A DNA stretch of 34,102 bases from IMG/VR virus record IMGVR_UViG_2778261316_000008. One strand, given 5' to 3'. Below are positions 1 through 30,801 of this stretch, in pieces; within the stretch, counting starts at the first letter, position 1; each line of letters opens with the position of its first letter. Source of the stretch: a virus (lineage: Duplodnaviria; Heunggongvirae; Uroviricota; Caudoviricetes). The notes under the pieces are model-generated. The model was given only the letters and a program-made list of their open reading frames with translations. It did not search any database and was not told the origin of the DNA. The translations under genes were made by a program, and so were the position numbers.

Positions 1-330
1 TCAGTAACCAAACAACGCCCATTTTAGTAGTGCATCTGCATCATTCTTCAAACTTCCAAGGTCTTTTCCTGGTGAAATTGTTGCCGCTACACCAAGCGCA
101 TTAAGTCGAAGCTGTGCCTGATGGAATCGACTCTCTTGCTGTAGGCCCAGAATTTCATTTTTATTCGCGACAGCATAACGCTGAATGGCTGACTTCGATA
201 CGCTGTAACCTTTATCGGCTAACCAGAGCGAGAGCCATTCATAACTGGTGAAGTTTGTGCGCGATAATTCGCTATGAAGCTCGGCACGAACATCCTCTGG
301 CAGTTTATCAATATTGCTTGGTCTGGCCAT
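1..330 (-). CDS. DUF3486-like protein (short paralogue of the gp27-like ORF at 12611-13156)
   Basis: ATG at 330 preceded by AGGAGG; N-terminal ~55 aa (MARxSxIxKLPEDVR...GYxxSKSAIxRY) clearly alignable with the 181-aa ORF at 12611; stop codon at bases 1-3. Confidence 0.6.
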   Translation of the reverse strand: MARPSNIDKLPEDVRAELHSELSRTNFTSYEWLSLWLADKGYSVSKSAIQRYAVANKNEILGLQQESRFHQAQLRLNALGVAATISPGKDLGSLKNDADALLKWALFGY

Positions 331-349
331 CTGTCCTCCTATAAATAGC

Positions 350-739
350 TTAGCTATTTTCCACCTTCTCTGAATCAGAGTCACCATCAAACAGTTTGCC
401 CTGCATCCGATCCAATTCTTCTTTTCTGACCCGCTTCACCACGCTGTAAACCCACTGTAGTGAAACACCGAATTTGCGGGCCAGTTCGTGATGGTTGCGT
501 CCGTCAAACTCCAGGAAGATTTCCCGGTCGCGCTGACTGACCTTCCAGACCATGCCCATCGGAAAATAGACGTTTTGCCCACCCCAGACCTGCATCATGC
601 GGTTCGCGACGGCCTGACCAATCTGGTCGGCAACTGCGGGTTCGATATCAATAATCTCGCGGACGGTCTCAGAGGTATGCTGTGCCAGTTCTACCAACAG
701 TTCCGGCCCTTTACTACGAAACTGATTCAGGTCACTCAT
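350..739 (-). CDS. Mor/C-family transcriptional activator (middle/late gene activator)
   Basis: 129-aa ORF from ATG at 739 (MSDLNQ...); C-terminal region (ELARKFGVSLQWVYSVVKRVR) has the HTH pattern of Mor-family activators; position after GemA-like gene as in Mu. Confidence 0.75.
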   Translation of the reverse strand: MSDLNQFRSKGPELLVELAQHTSETVREIIDIEPAVADQIGQAVANRMMQVWGGQNVYFPMGMVWKVSQRDREIFLEFDGRNHHELARKFGVSLQWVYSVVKRVRKEELDRMQGKLFDGDSDSEKVENS

Positions 740-1164
740 TGCTTCACTCCCGCAGCTCTGCTCTGCCACTTCTTCAGTTTCTCAATCACGCTACTTGCCT
801 GCTCATTGCTGAGCCAGCGTAACGCGCTGATGCCTGTTTCCCGTTTAACCCACAGCGCCAGCGCCTGCTCTGAACTGTCTCGGACGATGCCTGCGGCAGC
901 CATTTCAAGCCATAGCGCACGGATTTTCTTTGACTGCGGATGACTATCCAGCGGTAAGCCGGACCTGGCTTTCCCGGCAGGCTTAATGCGAAAGCCTTTA
1001 TTTTTCATGGATTCCAGCACGCGGTTTAGCTGTGGGGTATCCATCCCTTTGGTTGAGGCTTTGCCGGTCAGCCCCTGTAGCATCTGGCGGTAGGTGTCCT
1101 CATCCATCTGGAGGTCGCTGCGGGCAATATGAATGAGTTGAATAAGACGCTGCTTAGTCATCAT
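736..1164 (-). CDS. GemA-like protein (Mu gp16 family)
   Basis: ATG at 1164 (MMTKQRLIQLIHIARSDL...); motif LIxLIHxA...DDTYR...LxxxTGK resembles Mu GemA/gp16; 4-nt overlap with downstream activator gene. Confidence 0.65.
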   Translation of the reverse strand: MMTKQRLIQLIHIARSDLQMDEDTYRQMLQGLTGKASTKGMDTPQLNRVLESMKNKGFRIKPAGKARSGLPLDSHPQSKKIRALWLEMAAAGIVRDSSEQALALWVKRETGISALRWLSNEQASSVIEKLKKWQSRAAGVKQ

Positions 1165-10000: not shown

Positions 10001-10247
10001 TATCCGTAAGCCTTTTGCAATCAATGAAAATATGGCAGGCTAGTCTGGTCTCGCGAGACTGACTGAACCCTGGTCGGCTCACAGTGCATACCTGTGGGTT
10101 GATGACCAGCCTGGTGTTACCGCACCGGGCTGGTCGTTCTTTCAAAGCCATCATGCGGTTCACGTCTGCATCCTCACTATTAACGCTGTTTAAAATCCCT
10201 TTCCCCGACCATTTGTGATGCTGTCTCCACTACACAAGGAGACGCTC

Positions 10248-16976: not shown

Positions 16977-17435
16977 ATGGCTTCCGATAACCTGGTCAAT
17001 ATCACCATTAACGATGAATCCCTGCGCCGGAGCCTCCGTGCGCTGGACCTGGCTGCCACAGACCTGGAACCCGCGATGCGTAAAATCGCCGGAACCCTGC
17101 TGGCGGAAACGCAGTTTAACTTTCTCGATGAGGGGCGTCCGGGGTGGACTCCCTCGCTGGCAGCGGAAAAGCGCGACGGGCAAACACTGCAGGATACCGG
17201 GCGTCTGATGGGGTCAGTATCAACCGACCATGACGACCGGCAGGCAGCAGTTGGCACTAATGTCGTTTATGGGCCAATTCACCAGTTCGGTGGTAAAACG
17301 GGGCGTAATGAGTCCGTCGAACTTCCGGCCCGTCCGTTCCTGCCGCTGACAGGGGACGGTGAGCTGCAGCCTGAAGTGGTTGTCCCCATCCTCGATACGA
17401 TTGTCCGCCATCTTGAAGCAGCGGCCCGTCGCTGA
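16977..17435 (+). CDS. virion morphogenesis protein (Mu G-like)
   Basis: ATG at 16977 with GAGAGGA RBS; 152 aa; position after F-like gene. Confidence 0.6.
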   Translation: MASDNLVNITINDESLRRSLRALDLAATDLEPAMRKIAGTLLAETQFNFLDEGRPGWTPSLAAEKRDGQTLQDTGRLMGSVSTDHDDRQAAVGTNVVYGPIHQFGGKTGRNESVELPARPFLPLTGDGELQPEVVVPILDTIVRHLEAAARR

Positions 17436-17479
17436 GTTTTGTCTCTACAGGCGGGTGATTTATCATTGCCAGCCGCTGA

Positions 17480-17515
17480 GGGGCTGTATTACCTTTATAA
17501 AGGCTTTACAGCCCC
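17480..17515. promoter_or_regulatory. nested dyad element in the G-I intergenic gap
   Basis: Perfect 12-bp palindrome CCTTTATAAAGG (17492-17503) flanked by 9-bp inverted repeat GGGGCTGTA / TACAGCCCC. Confidence 0.4.
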
Positions 17516-17649
17516 CGCTTTGCACCACTATTCGCCCGCAGCGTGACATTCCCCGTACTGATACCCCCGATTTTTTCTAAAGCAGATTAAAAGCGCTGCT
17601 GATGCTTTTTCCACAGACTGTCCCCGACAACGTAACGCGGGACAGCAAA

Positions 17650-18747
17650 ATGCCAGCCATTCACATTTTTAAAGCCGGTACTCATACCGATATGCACGGC
17701 ACGAAACTGCCGTTCACGCAAAGCGATCTTGCCGCCTGCGTGAAAGCCTATGACCCGTCCGTCCATGAAGCACCACTCGTTATTGGCCACCCCAAAACGG
17801 AAGACCCGGCGTGGGGCTGGGTGAAATCCCTGTCGCTCAAAGGCGGCGATCTGCTGGCAGAGCCTGACCAGCTCGACCCGCAGTTTGCCGAACTGGTGGG
17901 CAACGGACGCTTCAAGAAGGTCTCCGCCTCATTCTATCTCCCTGACTCACCGAACAACCCGAAGCCCGGCACGCTTTACCTGCGTCATGTCGGCTTTCTG
18001 GGGGCGCAGCCACCTTCCATTAAGGGGCTGAAGCAGGTCTCGTTTGGTGAGAAAGAAGAAGGCGTCGTGGAGTTTGCCGACTGGAGTGATATCACCAATG
18101 CCTCTTTATGGGGCCGTCTGCGCGATTTTCTGATCGCCCAGTTCGGGCTGGACGAGACCGACAAGGTGCTTCCTTCATGGCAGGTTGACTCCCTGCGCGA
18201 AGAGGCTTACCGCGACACCGGGAAGTCTGAACCGGACTTCAGTGAACACAATCCCAACCCTCAACAAGAGAACAGCACCATGACTGAAGAAGAAATCAAA
18301 GCGCTTCAGGCGGAAAACACGCGTCTGAAAGCGGAAGCCACCCAGCGGGCGGAACAGGAAGCAAAGACCAGGCAGGACAAGCTGCACGCGGACAACGTCT
18401 CCTTTGCCGAGAAGCTGGTCGGCGCGGGTCGCCTGACCCCGGCAGCAAAACCGGTTGTTGTTGCCATTCTTGACGCGGTCTCTGCAGGTGACAAGCCGGT
18501 TGAGTTTGCCGAAGGCGATACCCGCACCCCGCTGGCCACGGCGTTTAAGACGCTGCTGGACAGCACTGATCCGGTACTGAATTTCAGTGAGCATGCGACC
18601 AAAGACCGCGTGAGCACGGATATCAAAACGACGTCAGCGGAGTTTGCTGAAGCCGACCCGGAACGTCTGGCGCTGCATCAGAAAGCGCTGGAACTGTCGA
18701 AAAAAGAAGGCATCAGCTACGACGCTGCTGTCTCCCGCTGCCTGTAA
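17650..18747 (+). CDS. prohead protease/scaffold protein (Mu I-like)
   Basis: MPAIHIFKAGTHTD... N-terminus, C-terminal coiled-coil scaffold-like region; alternative upstream in-frame ATG at 17602. Confidence 0.7.
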   Translation: MPAIHIFKAGTHTDMHGTKLPFTQSDLAACVKAYDPSVHEAPLVIGHPKTEDPAWGWVKSLSLKGGDLLAEPDQLDPQFAELVGNGRFKKVSASFYLPDSPNNPKPGTLYLRHVGFLGAQPPSIKGLKQVSFGEKEEGVVEFADWSDITNASLWGRLRDFLIAQFGLDETDKVLPSWQVDSLREEAYRDTGKSEPDFSEHNPNPQQENSTMTEEEIKALQAENTRLKAEATQRAEQEAKTRQDKLHADNVSFAEKLVGAGRLTPAAKPVVVAILDAVSAGDKPVEFAEGDTRTPLATAFKTLLDSTDPVLNFSEHATKDRVSTDIKTTSAEFAEADPERLALHQKALELSKKEGISYDAAVSRCL

Positions 18748-18760
18748 TTAAGGAGAGAAC

Positions 18761-19714
18761 ATGTCTGACTATTTAAAGGGTAAGCGCGTCGTTGACCCGG
18801 TGCTGACCAGCATCGCACGCGGTTATAAAAATGCCGCGTTCATCGGCGAACGCATCTTCCCCATTGTCCTTACCGATAAGGAAGGTGTGACCGTGCCGAC
18901 CTTCGGTAAATCCGCTTTTGTGGAGTACGACACCGAGCGTGCCGTGGGGGCTGACAGTAACGTTCTGGTGCGCGAGAAAACCGGCAAGCTGGACCTGGTT
19001 CTCAACGAGCACGATCTGGCTGCGCCGGTGGACTATCGCGAGCAGGCGGAGTCGATGTTCAACGAAGAGGCCAAAGCCATTCGCCGTGTGACGAGCGGCG
19101 TCAACCTGAAGCGCGAACTGTATGCGGCCCGTCTGGCCCAGGACAAAAACGTCTATCGCGCGGCTAACGTCAAAGCGCTGGCTGCGGCTGACCGCTGGGG
19201 CGGTGGTAAGGGTGACCCGATTGGCGTCATTGAAGGCGGGATTGAGGCGGTACGTAACGCCACCGGCCTGCGTCCGAACCTGATGACCATGGGGGCAAGC
19301 GTCATGTCGCTGCTGAAGTTCCACCCGGCGATTCAGGCCGCGATTGGAGCCAACGAGCGCAAGCGTATCACCATCGAAATTCTGAAAGACCTTTTCCAGC
19401 TGGAAGATGTGGCGATCGGCGAGCCGGTCTCCATGGCCTCCATGAAAGACGCGCAGAACAAGGACAAAGTCCCGACCGATATCTGGGGTGACAACCTGAT
19501 GCTGCATTACGTCGGCAAACCCCAGCCAGGCACCGACAGCGCCGACGAAAACGAGCCGTCATTCGGTTACACCCTGCGCCGTAAAGGGATGCCGGTGGCG
19601 GATAAATACGACGGCGTCGGCGGCAAGGTGAAGTACTGCCGTTATACCGATATCTACAAAGTCGCCGTGGTCGGTGGCGATGCCGGGTATCTCATCACCA
19701 ACATTGTGAAATAA
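18761..19714 (+). CDS. major head (capsid) protein (Mu T-like)
   Basis: 317 aa, strong RBS AAGGAGAG, position after protease/scaffold. Confidence 0.75.
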   Translation: MSDYLKGKRVVDPVLTSIARGYKNAAFIGERIFPIVLTDKEGVTVPTFGKSAFVEYDTERAVGADSNVLVREKTGKLDLVLNEHDLAAPVDYREQAESMFNEEAKAIRRVTSGVNLKRELYAARLAQDKNVYRAANVKALAAADRWGGGKGDPIGVIEGGIEAVRNATGLRPNLMTMGASVMSLLKFHPAIQAAIGANERKRITIEILKDLFQLEDVAIGEPVSMASMKDAQNKDKVPTDIWGDNLMLHYVGKPQPGTDSADENEPSFGYTLRRKGMPVADKYDGVGGKVKYCRYTDIYKVAVVGGDAGYLITNIVK

Positions 19715-23473: not shown

Positions 23474-23496
23474 GGGGCTTCGGCCCCTTTCTTCTT
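23474..23496 (+). terminator. rho-independent terminator
   Basis: GGGGC-TTCG-GCCCC stem-loop followed by TTTCTTCTT. Confidence 0.6.
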
Positions 23497-23501
23497 AATC
23501 C

Positions 23502-23539
23502 CCTTTAATATCCGTCACGTCCACCTCCAGACATACTGC
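23502..23539 (+). promoter_or_regulatory. candidate activator-dependent late promoter element (copy 1)
   Basis: CCTTTAATATCCG-N18-ATACTGC; same bipartite block with identical spacing recurs at 29318-29355. Confidence 0.45.
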
Positions 23540-29305: not shown

Positions 29306-29317
29306 CCTTCTTAAACG

Positions 29318-29355
29318 CCTTTAATATCGGCGTTCCCGCACAGGGGCAATACTGC
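29318..29355 (+). promoter_or_regulatory. candidate activator-dependent late promoter element (copy 2)
   Basis: CCTTTAATATCGG-N18-ATACTGC, matching the block at 23502-23539. Confidence 0.45.
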
Positions 29356-29359
29356 CCCC

Positions 29360-29707
29360 ATGAAAACAACTTCCGTATTCTGGCAACCGGCCCTGCAGGC
29401 CCCTGGCGAAATCGTCCGGGGGCTGGATGATATCTGGCAGGCCATTCAAATCATCCTGCGAACTCCTCGCGGCAGCGACCCGCATCGCCCGGAGTTCGGC
29501 AGCAACCTGCATCTTTATATCGACTGGCCCATCGACCGGGCTATCCCACATGTGGTGCGCGAGTCCGTTGATGCCATCCGGCGCTGGGAGCCTCGCTGCC
29601 AGCTTATGTCGGTTAAACCCGCCGTCGACGGTGAACATCTTACGCTCCGGGTGAGCTGGAAAGGCTCTGACGGACAGCCCCGGACTCAGGAGCTTTTATG
29701 GTGCTGA
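29360..29707 (+). CDS. baseplate wedge protein (GPW/gp25-like)
   Basis: 115 aa; IWQAIQIILRTPRGSDPHRPEFGSNLHLYI pattern typical of GPW/gp25 family. Confidence 0.75.
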   Translation: MKTTSVFWQPALQAPGEIVRGLDDIWQAIQIILRTPRGSDPHRPEFGSNLHLYIDWPIDRAIPHVVRESVDAIRRWEPRCQLMSVKPAVDGEHLTLRVSWKGSDGQPRTQELLWC

Positions 29708-30801
29708 CAGAACCCGATTTTATTGAACGCGATGCCGACAAAATCACGGCTGAAATGATTGCTCAGTACGAAGCCGCAACCGGCAAGACGCTGTACCCCG
29801 CCCAGGCTGAGCGCCTGTTGATTGACCTGTGGGCATACCGCGAAATGCTGGTCAGGGTAGCGGCGCAGGAAGCGGCCAAACAGAATCTGGTCGCCTTTGC
29901 CCGTGAGCCGATGATTGATTACCTCGGTGAACTGGTCGGTGTTTACCGCCTTGCCGCGCAGCCTGCCACCACCACTCTCCAGTTCTCCGTGGATGAGGCA
30001 CTGGCCATTGATGTGCTGATTCCGGCAGGCACCCGCGTCAGCGCTTCCGACAGCATTATTTTTGCCACCGATACGGACGTGGTGCTGAAAGCCGGATTGC
30101 TTCTGGTCAATGCCACGGCCACCTGTACCGAACCGGGAGCCGCTGGCAATGGCTGGCAACCTGCGCAGGTCAGTCAGTTGCTCGATGAGATTGATAACGT
30201 CGACCTGCAGGTGACCAATCTGATGGCAAGTTCTGGCGGTTCAGAGCAGGAAGACAATGACAGGCTCCGCGAGCGTATCAAACTGGCCCCGGAGTCATTC
30301 ACCAACGCCGGAAGCCGTATGGCATACCGCTTTCATGCCATGCAGGCCCATCCCAACATCGTCGACGTCGCTGTGCTCTCCCCGGTTCCCGGCACCGTAG
30401 AACTGTATCCGCTGCTCAGTACCGGCCTGCCGGAGGACAGCATCCTTACGCTGGTAGAGAGTTTCTGCTTGGACGAAAAAGTCAGGCCGCTCACTGACAC
30501 CGTGCGGGCTAAAACACCTGTGCAGGTGGATTACGCCATTGAAGCCAACATCACTATCTATCGTGATCAGGATGCCAACTCGATAAAGGACAACGCCAAC
30601 AGCGCCATACAGAACTGGGTGGCGTCCCGTACCGCCACGCTGGGGCGCGATATTGTCCCCAGTCAGATTATCAGCGTGCTGTCCGTTGCCGGAGTGTATC
30701 AGGTCGAACTGGTGACACCAGTGCTGAAGGTAGTGGCAGAAAACGAATGGGCAAACTGTACGGCGATCACTCTTAACATGACCGGGGTGTCCGATGGCTG
30801 A
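29698..30801 (+). CDS. baseplate J-like protein
   Basis: 367 aa following GPW-like gene with overlap. Confidence 0.8.
   Translation: MVLTEPDFIERDADKITAEMIAQYEAATGKTLYPAQAERLLIDLWAYREMLVRVAAQEAAKQNLVAFAREPMIDYLGELVGVYRLAAQPATTTLQFSVDEALAIDVLIPAGTRVSASDSIIFATDTDVVLKAGLLLVNATATCTEPGAAGNGWQPAQVSQLLDEIDNVDLQVTNLMASSGGSEQEDNDRLRERIKLAPESFTNAGSRMAYRFHAMQAHPNIVDVAVLSPVPGTVELYPLLSTGLPEDSILTLVESFCLDEKVRPLTDTVRAKTPVQVDYAIEANITIYRDQDANSIKDNANSAIQNWVASRTATLGRDIVPSQIISVLSVAGVYQVELVTPVLKVVAENEWANCTAITLNMTGVSDG

Follow-up and report, generated by a model that had tools for sequence, protein, structure and literature searches.

The central G-I gap of a BcepMu-like transposable prophage as a probable boundary between two late transcription units

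What role is played by the 214 bp of DNA that separate the G-like and I-like head genes of a Mu-like phage? The question arises from a 34,102-nucleotide stretch of viral DNA (hereafter, the window), which is a BcepMu-like transposable prophage and in which an initial annotation had singled out a structured, non-coding gap at 17436-17649, proposing that it was either an empty but regulated accessory slot or the late promoter of the head genes. All coordinates noted for the gap held on re-checking, including its placement between the two genes and its length of 214 bp, which follows from the stop codon of the G-like gene at 17433-17435 (the left edge of the gap) and the start of the I-like gene at ATG 17650, the latter being also the start assigned by PGAP in the near-identical prophage of E. 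coli Ecol_542.

16977-17435, + strand: G-like virion morphogenesis gene (PF05069, E=8.7e-23; PGAP and PhiKM annotations)
17436-17649: G-I gap, 214 bp
17650-18747, + strand: I-like head protease/scaffold gene, first of the head operon (homology to BcepMu gp32, 'head maturation protease')

The gap probably marks where two late transcription units of a BcepMu-type transposable phage meet, and its layout resembles that of the G-I region of Mu. The explanation is mostly an ordinary one, namely a central control region kept by Mu-like phages, in which a terminator-like hairpin comes first and a late promoter of the head genes, dependent on an activator, comes after it; the exception is one deeply conserved element of 16 bases. 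BcepMu-like prophages were found across Enterobacterales and Burkholderia, and 637 of 5426 complete E. coli genomes (~12%), including ST131 strains such as EC958, carry one. The gap is uninterrupted, at 194-215 bp, in 95 of 99 family loci (~96%), and 630 of the 637 E. coli genomes with the region have it uninterrupted as one of two 214-bp alleles. It also keeps a central position, lying 152-365 bp off centre in the Ecol_542-type prophage (34.3 kb), between 50.7% and 51.3% of the way along BcepMu and, more broadly, at 50-52% of the genome in the Ecol_542-type prophage, BcepMu, phiSHP3, and Chromohalobacter and Leptolyngbya phages.

The elements assigned to the head-gene promoter occupy the 3′ part of the gap, beyond a variable spacer.

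17516-17571, + strand: pyrimidine-rich variable spacer (alignments; ~50% identity between E. coli alleles, indels between clades)
17577-17590, + strand: putative Mor-type activator site, an imperfect dyad CTAA-AGCAGA-TTAA (CTAAAGCAGATTAA) centred at about -42.5 (motif and conservation)
17614-17619, + strand: -10 hexamer CAGACT, then G, 23 nt after the dyad
17626, + strand: predicted transcription start (G), 7 nt after the hexamer, leaving a 24-nt leader to ATG 17650
17618-17645, + strand: inverted repeat CTGTCCC (17618-17624)/GGGACAG (17639-17645), right arm over the likely Shine-Dalgarno sequence

No -35 hexamer accompanies this promoter, AAAGCG being found in that position, and the centre of the dyad lies 30.5 nt before the hexamer at 17614-17619, a geometry common to all four promoters of this kind in the window. 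In a set of 66 unique gaps, four hexamers are seen (CAGACT, CAAACT, CACACT, and GACACT), the distance from the dyad to the ATG is 59 nt in every case, and the last 82 nt are free of indels; the distance from the palindrome to the dyad ranges from 66 to 92 bp, the dyad of the window lying 80 bp downstream. The idea of a head-gene late promoter in the gap was sound as to place but attached to the wrong element, as it is the dyad at 17577-17590 with the -10 hexamer CAGACT, instead of the palindrome, that forms it. On a dyad matrix that involves some circularity, since the sites it scores also went into it, the four promoters reach 26-33 bits and the next-best site in the window 15, whereas the palindrome scores -4.6 bits and is ruled out as a Mor site; the CCTTTA half-site that it had been said to share with the late element is thus a superficial resemblance. 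In a dRNA-seq study of the uninduced BcepMu lysogen J2315, no start site is listed for the G or I genes (PMC4603805), which is consistent with activator dependence, albeit not proof of it.

The same arrangement recurs elsewhere in the window. The dyad consensus YTAA-N6-TTAA gives nine strand-matches against 0.76 expected, a count reached in none of 100 shuffles, and four of its five sites are intergenic and upstream of late genes. When the dyad is combined with a 23-nt spacer and NANNNT, exactly four matches are left in 34 kb, all of them on the + strand, intergenic, and 11-69 nt upstream of late-gene start codons; a G follows each hexamer, and NANNCT+G stands exactly 23 nt past the dyad at all four promoters. 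The three sister promoters and the gene for the candidate activator are as follows.

10180-10222, + strand: sister late promoter of the holin gene, TTAACGCTGTTTAA, 23 nt, GATGCT (conserved in 54 of 55 loci)
23495-23537, + strand: sister late promoter of the tail-assembly genes, TTAATCCCCTTTAA, 23 nt, CATACT (conserved in 53 of 55 loci)
29311-29353, + strand: sister late promoter of baseplate gene W, TTAAACGCCTTTAA, 23 nt, AATACT (same arrangement in BcepMu at 30774)
353-769, - strand: Mor/C-family transcription activator gene, the presumed late-promoter activator (PF08765 (Mor), E=1.3e-42)

Among 55 related 21-kb loci, the promoter pattern is present at -73 from the I start without exception (55/55); BcepMu has it at three homologous positions, and the dyad is also conserved in a Ralstonia phage. 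A canonical terminator, GGGGCTTCGGCCCCTTTCTTC, directly precedes the promoter at 23495, as one does the BcepMu equivalent. Because the 7-nt rule puts the predicted +1 on the ATG of gene W, both in the window (29360) and in BcepMu, the gene W mRNA would be leaderless. At the holin and tail promoters, starts are predicted at about 10229 and 23544, respectively. Upstream of the holin gene, the initial annotation had described CCCTTTCCCCGAC-N18-CACTACA as a weaker variant of the palindrome; the sequence is present at 10197-10234, but it belongs to the holin late promoter, of which it forms the spacer and 5′ leader, and is no palindrome variant. In the near-identical Ecol_542 prophage, the product of the Mor gene is likewise labelled a Mor family protein.

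The inverted repeat around the predicted start site is of less certain meaning. Its arms pair in 96.4% of cells across 24 distinct sequences, and all changes are one-sided C to U substitutions that yield G.U pairs, with no compensatory pairs. Since the predicted +1 is downstream of the left arm, only read-through RNA could form the hairpin, and the arms could be conserved simply as a promoter discriminator and a Shine-Dalgarno sequence.

The 5′ part of the gap, in which the initial annotation had placed a perfect 12-bp palindrome nested in a 9-bp inverted repeat, contains three features.

17450-17474, + strand: weak stem-loop, the first past the G stop (folding of eight clade representatives as RNA; 67-unique-gap alignment)
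17480-17515, + strand: terminator-like hairpin with a 9-bp outer stem, GGGGCTGTA/TACAGCCCC, and the palindrome as its apex (RNA folding)
17494-17509, + strand: invariant 16-mer TTTATAAAGGCTTTAC, which holds most of the palindrome (comparison across clades)

Both described elements are there, the palindrome CCTTTATAAAGG at 17492-17503 and the arms of the inverted repeat at 17480-17488 and 17507-17515. Perfect 12-bp palindromes number eight in the window versus 9.2 +/- 3.0 in shuffles; by itself the palindrome is no more than chance, and conservation is what makes it non-random. The first stem-loop is replaced in other clades by a stronger, GC-rich hairpin of different sequence. The 104-nt segment containing the main hairpin folds at -34.5 kcal/mol (z=-2.7), and the hairpin is retained in six of eight clade representatives although the outer stems differ by clade. 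Its U-tail is weak in the clade of the window (CGCUUUGC) and better in relatives (UUUU in locus L065, UCUGUUUUAU in the EC958 type, and UUUGGUU in BcepMu), and in Mu, where the tail is also U-rich, a TransTermHP terminator stands at the equivalent place. A simple terminator pattern scan did not report the hairpin because its loop exceeds 8 nt, and an Rfam scan of the gap returned only a chance-level match (MS2 operator, E=8.5, 10.8 bits versus a gathering threshold of 40 bits).

What sets this hairpin apart is its apex. The 16-mer is identical in all enteric clades but one, as well as in BcepMu, phiE255, and the distant relative L193; in the exceptional enteric clade, represented by 17 unique sequences, one nucleotide is missing (GG-TTTAC), and the element of the Ralstonia phage contains CTTGA. 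It is present once per genome, 0.01 copies being expected by chance in the Burkholderia phage BcepMu, and an exact search of IMG/VR returned 34 family members, ~44 unrelated low-GC chance matches, and L193 as the one informative distant relative. In L193, the element is a near-perfect 23-bp palindrome downstream of a separate canonical terminator, from which it follows that the palindrome is not kept merely for termination. An invariant apex on drifting stems is a pattern of which a terminator role gives no account.

One explanation of the apex, possible but on balance doubtful, is that a sequence-specific protein (host IHF, a similar bending protein, or a phage regulator) binds the palindromic element and acts on the DNA without need of the hairpin, perhaps bending the midpoint or modulating read-through. 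This would suit an element that is nucleotide-identical from E. coli to Burkholderia phages when all flanking gap sequence has diverged, that is single-copy, and that L193 keeps after a separate terminator. The consensus for IHF is WATCAANNNNTTR, and TATAAAGGCTTTA fits it at eight of nine specified positions in most clades; however, several factor consensus sequences were tried first, so the partial match carries little weight, and the 1-nt deletion breaks the IHF spacing while the Ralstonia CTTGA breaks the consensus. Fis and CRP consensus sequences, compared by inspection, did not fit the element. Neither is the element a Mor site, and nothing resembling it is present in the operator region or the rest of the phage.

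It is rather unlikely that the 5′ half of the gap, palindrome included, is the BcepMu-lineage counterpart of the central strong gyrase site (SGS) of Mu, whereby gyrase bound at the midpoint would supercoil the loop joining the prophage ends for transposition, with the AT-phased palindrome serving as the wrapping 'right arm'. The location is suggestive, given that gyrase cuts Mu (at 17879/80) 20 bp past the stop codon of G, within the corresponding intergenic region, that the site is in the G-I intergenic region in both Mu and FluMu (PMC2628397), and that the gap is near the genome midpoint (50-52%) in several transposable phages. In 10-11.5-bp A/T periodicity, a proxy for gyrase sites that lacks power since the Mu control reaches only the 98th percentile, the region centred at 17504-17522 ranks third in the window. 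With a gyrase matrix rebuilt from the raw cleavage table (Sutormin 2019; 222 E. coli Topo-seq sites), the arm partial score over the palindrome falls in the 97th-99.9th percentile in every version of the matrix, and in many clades the best or second-best full site lies at +21 to +23 from the G stop (+16 in Mu). Nevertheless, that matrix places the Mu site (score 10.9) first among 36,588 positions in Mu, whereas the best sites of the gap, scoring 7.2 and 6.8, come only ~107th-150th among the 33,973 positions of the window, where the top score is 11.3; in this ranking of the whole window no outstanding match to the 130-bp gyrase binding/cleavage motif fell in the gap. The gap sites have poor centre and left-arm scores and ranks that are unstable in split-half matrices, ~0.6 arm scores as high are expected by chance in 214 bp, and degenerate gyrase recognition would need no invariant 16-mer. 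The replacement gyrase sites tested in Mu reportedly included that of the BcepMu-like prophage of Salmonella Typhi CT18. According to a review, only the site of the closely related Sakai prophage, among those tried as replacements, promoted Mu replication (PMC10052514).

Alternatively, the 16-mer may be a 'centre' element that does the job of the Mu SGS by a different mechanism, from a hairpin- or cruciform-capable apex at the genome midpoint, an idea that we consider improbable; one possibility is that a sharp bend, protein-induced or intrinsic, would fix the midpoint at the tip of a supercoiled loop and so align the ends for transposition.

Far less probable is the reading of the gap as an empty accessory (moron or anti-defence) slot with the dyad as its operator, on the pattern of the anti-CRISPR loci of Pseudomonas Mu-like phages. 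The precedent agrees with the literature, in which the protease/scaffold gene of these phages is described as adjoining a region of plasticity that contains anti-CRISPR genes (PMC4378225), and the comparison of the G-I junction across relatives that the initial annotation had proposed did bring cargo to light. Cargo genes occur in three loci that represent two insertion events: Brenneria locus L020 has an EEP-family nuclease/phosphatase gene (PF19580, E=4e-9) and a 177-aa gene at the junction, Symbiopectobacterium locus L022 has decayed copies of the L020-type cargo, and L193 has a small membrane ORF and a 200-aa HEPN-like Rx4H gene; in addition, an IS66 element occupies the junction in locus L005. 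Against these stands the prevalence of the uninterrupted gap (95/99 family loci, 630/637 E. coli genomes), and the conserved gap blocks are kept with or without cargo, which lies on either side of the palindrome, so that the palindrome is not tied to it. Furthermore, the window contains no aca-like HTH gene, the gap has no conserved ORF, and the dRNA-seq of uninduced J2315 lists no G or I start site (PMC4603805). Cargo at this junction is a feature of rare lineages, and the slot reading is largely refuted by the comparative data. That the gap encodes a small protein is barely credible: the initial annotation had seen no plausible ORF, and the one candidate, a 41-aa GTG ORF at 17455-17580, although open in three enteric clades and annotated in the KP12 GenBank record OM835952, is not conserved, lacks a Shine-Dalgarno sequence and a Pfam match, is missing from the Erwinia-type and L065 clades, and has a C-terminal half that is unrelated between clades 86% identical in DNA.

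Several smaller candidates were rejected as well. A sigma-70 scan match, TTGTCT-16-TATCAT (17439-17466), occurs at the chance rate, and its -10 is lost in the Erwinia-type clade; likewise, a constitutive promoter with TTTACA as its -35 or TATAAA as its -10 would lack a partner hexamer conserved across clades, and J2315 has no listed G or I start. Two sequences common to the gap and the holin gene's surroundings were also set aside, TCCCCGAC (shared with the holin leader) as chance, with two copies against 1.0 expected and differing positions relative to the promoter, and TGATGCTnnnTCCAC (shared with the holin region) as confined to this clade. The DnaA-box-like TTTTCCACA (17606-17614) is not conserved in the EC958-type or Pectobacterium clades.

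For the preferred reading, a boundary between two late transcription units, the following course of events can be proposed. Transcripts of the lysis/packaging operon (holin to G) would meet one or two stem-loops, the main one of which, at 17480-17515, is probably a leaky intrinsic terminator or a 3′ stabiliser. Some 80 bp on, the single Mor/C-family activator would bind the dyad at 17577-17590 as a dimer, centred near -42.5, and stand in for the missing -35, with sigma-70 RNA polymerase using the weak -10 CAGACT (17614-17619) and starting near 17626, from where transcription would enter the head genes (those for I, the major head protein, and others). Promoters of this type would also drive the holin, tail, and baseplate-W operons. 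The CTGTCCC/GGGACAG repeat may mask the ribosome-binding site in read-through RNA only, and the invariant 16-mer at the apex of the hairpin would have a further, sequence-specific role.

These predictions amount to a concrete late-transcription map for BcepMu-like prophages, in which four Mor-type promoters are each given a dyad, a spacing, and a predicted start, one of these starts being leaderless. Such a map should aid annotation (e.g., of BcepMu gp32, the annotated start of which overlaps the predicted -10) and the design of reporters for prophage induction. The G-I region of Mu-like phages is an ancient conserved module that occasionally takes defence-like cargo, not a free cargo slot. 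Should the 16-mer prove a true topological or architectural element, it would bear on how non-Mu transposable phages join ends 35 kb apart.

Among known systems, the nearest parallel is the G-I gap of Mu itself, which the initial annotation did not mention. With the anti-CRISPR locus of Pseudomonas phages (the JBD30, D3112, and MP29 group), the gap has in common the junction itself and the defence-like cargo of rare relatives, but the window lacks an ORF, an aca gene, and an Aca-type operator there, and the gap is uniform in ~96% of relatives. The resemblance to the Mu SGS lies in the same intergenic region near the genome midpoint, in the good gyrase 'arm' score of the palindrome region, and in the terminator hairpin that then follows, with its AT-rich, partly palindromic loop; unlike the SGS, the gap has no high-scoring gyrase motif, and its conserved feature is an exact 16-mer. 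Intrinsic terminators at phage operon boundaries are matched by the stable, GC-closed stem-loop directly after the last gene of the operon, by the U-rich tails of several relatives and BcepMu, and by the terminator-then-promoter layout, found also at 23.47-23.54 kb. The weak U-tract of the window's clade and the unusually large apical region of 18 nt depart from that model, as does the stronger conservation of the apex relative to the stem, a plain terminator showing the opposite.

The late promoters of Mu have a -10, no -35, and an imperfect C-binding dyad centred at -43.5 (PMC2582627); those of the window are predicted from the sequence. The two sets differ in their half-sites (YTAA/TTAA here, TTAT/ATAA in Mu, as in Pmom, which has TTAT-N6-ATAA and then 24 nt), in the dyad-to-hexamer spacing (23 nt here, 24 in Mu), and in the predicted leaderless mRNA from the gene W promoter. 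They differ too in that a single Mor/C-family gene at the end of the early operon takes the place of the Mor-then-C cascade of Mu, so the late promoters here are presumably activated directly. In other respects the correspondence is close. Both phages encode a Mor/C-family activator, and in both the lysis, head, and tail/baseplate units begin with promoters of this kind, four to a genome. Like the C-dependent promoters of Mu (P_I, Plys, PP, and Pmom), those of the window combine a sigma-70 -10 without a -35 with a 4-6-4 activator dyad overlapping the -35 region (centre at -42.5 here, -43.5 in Mu). The hexamers of the head-gene promoter, CAGACTg or CAAACTg, are near-identical to the CAAACTg of Mu P_I, that of Plys being TAGACTg. 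An inverted repeat straddles the start site and ribosome-binding site here as at P_I, where CTGCTCA-N10-TGAGCAG surrounds the start. Finally, P_I likewise lies directly upstream of gene I, and in the Mu record, annotations for a gyrase cut site, a terminator, and this late promoter all fall within the 196-bp G-I gap.

The region is matched at 99.9% by Klebsiella phage KP12, at 100% by the E. coli Ecol_542 prophage, at ~86.5% by Escherichia phage PhiKM (genus Bcepmuvirus) and at ~86.7% by the ST131/EC958 prophage allele, and it is carried by 637 of 5426 complete E. coli genomes. The KP12 record (OM835952) is filed under Vequintavirinae; its sequence is Bcepmuvirus-like. Gene order in the window is that of Burkholderia phage BcepMu: an early operon on the minus strand with a gene of the Mor family of Mu Mor/C activators at its end (353-769, minus strand; PF08765, E=1e-42), then a repressor, and then plus-strand holin, lysis, terminase, portal, F, G, I, major head protein, and tail genes. 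Downstream of the Mor gene lies a 129-aa ORF (4-390, minus strand) whose N-terminus matches Mu Gp27 (PF11985, E=5e-14); the segment carrying it is missing from the otherwise near-identical Ecol_542 prophage, so the left end of the window differs from that prophage.

Between the stop codon of the G-like morphogenesis gene at 17435 and the start of the protease/scaffold gene I at 17650 lie 214 bp, in agreement with the initial annotation, which had also correctly placed a perfect 12-bp palindrome (17492-17503) and a 9-bp inverted repeat (17480-17488/17507-17515) there. Such a palindrome is not unusual by itself, as the window contains eight versus 9.2 +/- 3.0 in shuffled sequences; the argument for its function rests on comparison with relatives. 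Approximately 100 related loci from Mixta, Pantoea, Erwinia, Pectobacterium, Brenneria, and Symbiopectobacterium genomes, IMG/VR, and annotated phages were compared. The G-I gap measures 194-215 bp in 95 of 99 loci, and 67 distinct gap sequences have the same blocks in common:

Block a, directly after the G stop: one or two stem-loops of clade-specific sequence
Block b, CCTTTATAAAGG(C)TTTACAGCC: invariant across the 67 distinct gaps
Block c: pyrimidine-rich spacer of 45-60 nt, freely variable, with indels
Block d, TTTTTCTAAAGCAGATTAAAAGC: conserved, holding the dyad CTAA-AGCAGA-TTAA
Block e, CACAnACTGTCCCCGAC...GGGACAGCAAAATG: conserved

The final 82 nt 5' of the start codon contain zero indels in all sequences compared. 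A 41-aa hypothetical protein annotated at 17455-17580 (KP12_270, OM835952) was discounted as a gene on cross-clade comparison.

The dyad of block d belongs to a class, YTAA-N6-TTAA, that yields nine strand-matches at five places in the window (0.76 expected; none of 100 shuffles reaches nine):

10180: before the holin gene
17577: in the G-I gap
23495: before the tail-assembly genes
29311: before baseplate gene W
33668: within the invertase coding sequence, taken as the one chance occurrence

When the four intergenic sites are aligned on the dyad, a NANNCT hexamer followed by G (GATGCT, CAGACT, CATACT, and AATACT) is always found 23 nt downstream. This composite pattern occurs at these four sites and no others in the 34-kb window, three times in BcepMu at homologous positions (upstream of holin, I, and W), and, among 55 related 21-kb loci, at -73 from the I start in all 55, before the holin in 54, and before the tail genes in 53. 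The architecture is that of the Mu C-dependent late promoters, which possess a -10 element, no -35 element, and an imperfect dyad centred at -43.5 (PMC2582627); the Mu hexamers are CAAACTg at P_I, the late promoter upstream of gene I, and TAGACTg at Plys, while Pmom carries TTAT-N6-ATAA + 24 nt (promoter oligonucleotides in PMC4461284 and the Mu sequence). Because both architecture and hexamers match, 17577-17619 is assigned as the probable P_I equivalent, with a predicted start near 17626. The earlier proposal of a head-gene late promoter in the gap is upheld as to the gap and corrected as to the element, the promoter lying 80 bp downstream of the palindrome. The promoter spacer contains TTTTCCACA (17606-17614), a match to the relaxed DnaA-box consensus TTWTNCACA that only some clades conserve.

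At the sister promoter of gene W (promoter to ATG: window 29311-29362; BcepMu NC_005882 30774-30825), both phages have 6 nt between the hexamer and the ATG, and the predicted +1 coincides with the A of this start codon; a conserved leaderless mRNA would be implied. In BcepMu (region 18849-18865), the annotated gp32 start at 18850 falls within the predicted -10 hexamer GATGAT, and the homologous start is the ATG at 18862 (MNAKPLHIF...); since this ATG aligns with the window I start (MPAIHIF), the gp32 annotation is probably four codons too long, and the BcepMu I mRNA may also be leaderless. The holin-promoter dyad (10180-10193, also on the minus strand) is a perfect TTAA-N6-TTAA palindrome; in relatives it lies ~7.4-7.5 kb upstream of the I start. 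Among 55 relatives, 15 also have a leftward hexamer that fits this dyad at 23 nt (CATGAT in the examples inspected; spacing 24 nt in the window). The hexamer faces a divergent DNA adenine methylase gene and is possibly, by analogy, part of a counterpart of the Mu C-dependent mom promoter.

Near the I start codon, a CTGTCCC/GGGACAG repeat could form a hairpin covering the likely Shine-Dalgarno sequence. As its left arm lies 5' of the predicted start, only RNA reading through from upstream should be able to fold into this hairpin; an equivalent arrangement in Mu, CTGCTCA-N10-TGAGCAG, surrounds the P_I start. Pairing is kept in 96% of cells, through one-sided C-to-U changes only, and a structural role is possible.

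Cargo at the G-I junction is rare but real. In Brenneria populi (L020 1267-2994), a 301-aa EEP-family gene (endonuclease/exonuclease/phosphatase; PF19580, E=4e-9) and a 177-aa gene whose product belongs to no family have been inserted immediately behind the G stop and ahead of the entire conserved module, with their own upstream region containing TATAAT; degraded copies of these genes occur in a Symbiopectobacterium symbiont (L022 1260-3000). The distant relative L193 (1127-2124, minus strand of the locus; I protein 52% identical) has cargo on both sides of the palindrome: ahead of it lie a small hydrophobic membrane ORF and that ORF's own canonical terminator, and after it, still before P_I, comes a 200-aa HEPN-like gene with an Rx4H motif, whose HEPN matches are sub-threshold in Pfam and PADLOC. 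In E. coli VTB96929v (L005 4137-7057), the IS66-family element ISCro1 sits at the very start of gene I and cuts it off from its promoter, which probably leaves this prophage copy defective. The accessory slot envisaged by the initial annotation exists, but the window gap is the standard cargo-free state, and its conserved blocks are assigned to the phage's own late-gene control.

The left arm of the outer inverted repeat around the palindrome is unconserved, and the substitutes in other clades pair with the conserved right side or flanking bases:

BcepMu outer stem: CCCGTAAAG/CTTTACGGG, then TTTGG
L021 outer stem: GCGGC/GCCGC
L065 outer stem: lengthened to 11 bp, then UUUU

Because these clade-specific stems still pair, the palindrome appears to be the apex of a terminator-like hairpin, and a canonical terminator stands immediately 5' of the sister promoter at 23495 and of its BcepMu equivalent. 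A plain terminator does not, however, explain the conservation of the overlapping 16-mer (17494-17509), TTTATAAAGGCTTTAC, which the E. coli prophage, BcepMu, phiE255, and L193 each carry as one identical copy and which is near-identical in a Ralstonia phage with just 47% identity in the I protein; it lies a fixed 50 or 59 nt from the G stop and a variable 66-92 bp from the promoter dyad, and L193 has a separate strong terminator 5' of it. Pectobacterium/Brenneria-clade gaps (L019, L021, L020, and others) contain, between the first hairpin and the palindrome, a small lambda boxB-like hairpin (GCCGC-GAAAA-GCGGC, or AGCCUGAAAAAUGGCU versus lambda GCCCUGAAAAAGGGC) with compensatory stem differences among sub-clades. 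The longer gap (284 bp) of Chromohalobacter phage YPCBV-1 (L111) lacks the 16-mer and has in its place (1128-1170) two TTTTAAACAC copies in direct orientation, 29 bp apart, reminiscent of the T/A tracts phased along the right arm of the Mu gyrase site.

That strong gyrase site, required for pairing of the prophage ends, occupies the same G-I gap near the centre of the Mu genome. A matrix was built from the raw Topo-seq table of Sutormin et al. (PMC6379681), taking 222 cleavage sites that recurred in two or more replicates. The W3110 sequences of these sites showed G at +1 and C at +4, as expected, and the matrix was symmetrised with the four central bases blanked, following Sutormin et al. As a control, the Mu site ranked top of 36,588 positions in Mu (cuts 17875/76 and 17879/80). 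The best gap positions are 17546 (7.2, rank 107) and 17456 (6.8, rank 150), the window maximum elsewhere being 11.3. The arm covering the palindrome scores consistently high (97th-99.9th percentile), and the best gap position falls at +21 to +23 from the G stop in several clades (+16 in Mu). Since ~0.6 arm scores this high are expected by chance per 214 bp and full-site ranks are unstable, a Mu-grade site is not supported by the motif, although a moderate one is conceivable. With this noisy matrix, the top window scores fall at ~12478 (11.3) and ~16659 (10.8); the latter position is in gene F, close to the prophage midpoint and ~0.8 kb to the left of the gap.

Further readings of the palindrome were weighed. 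It matches 8 of 9 specified positions of the IHF consensus, with the spacing broken by a 1-nt deletion in one clade; as a promoter it lacks a conserved partner hexamer, and in the uninduced BcepMu lysogen J2315 no start site was seen at G or I; comparison with the window's late-promoter dyads ruled out a Mor site. The palindrome is a strongly constrained element that the readings tried leave unexplained.

Overall, the feature is real and functional and is largely accounted for by well-known precedent. The Mu record places the gyrase cut site (17879/80) first, then a terminator (17908-17953) and then the late promoter (17977-18043); judged by its sequence, the gap would be the BcepMu-lineage version of this G-I control region of Mu, the late promoter of its head genes lying downstream of the palindrome.
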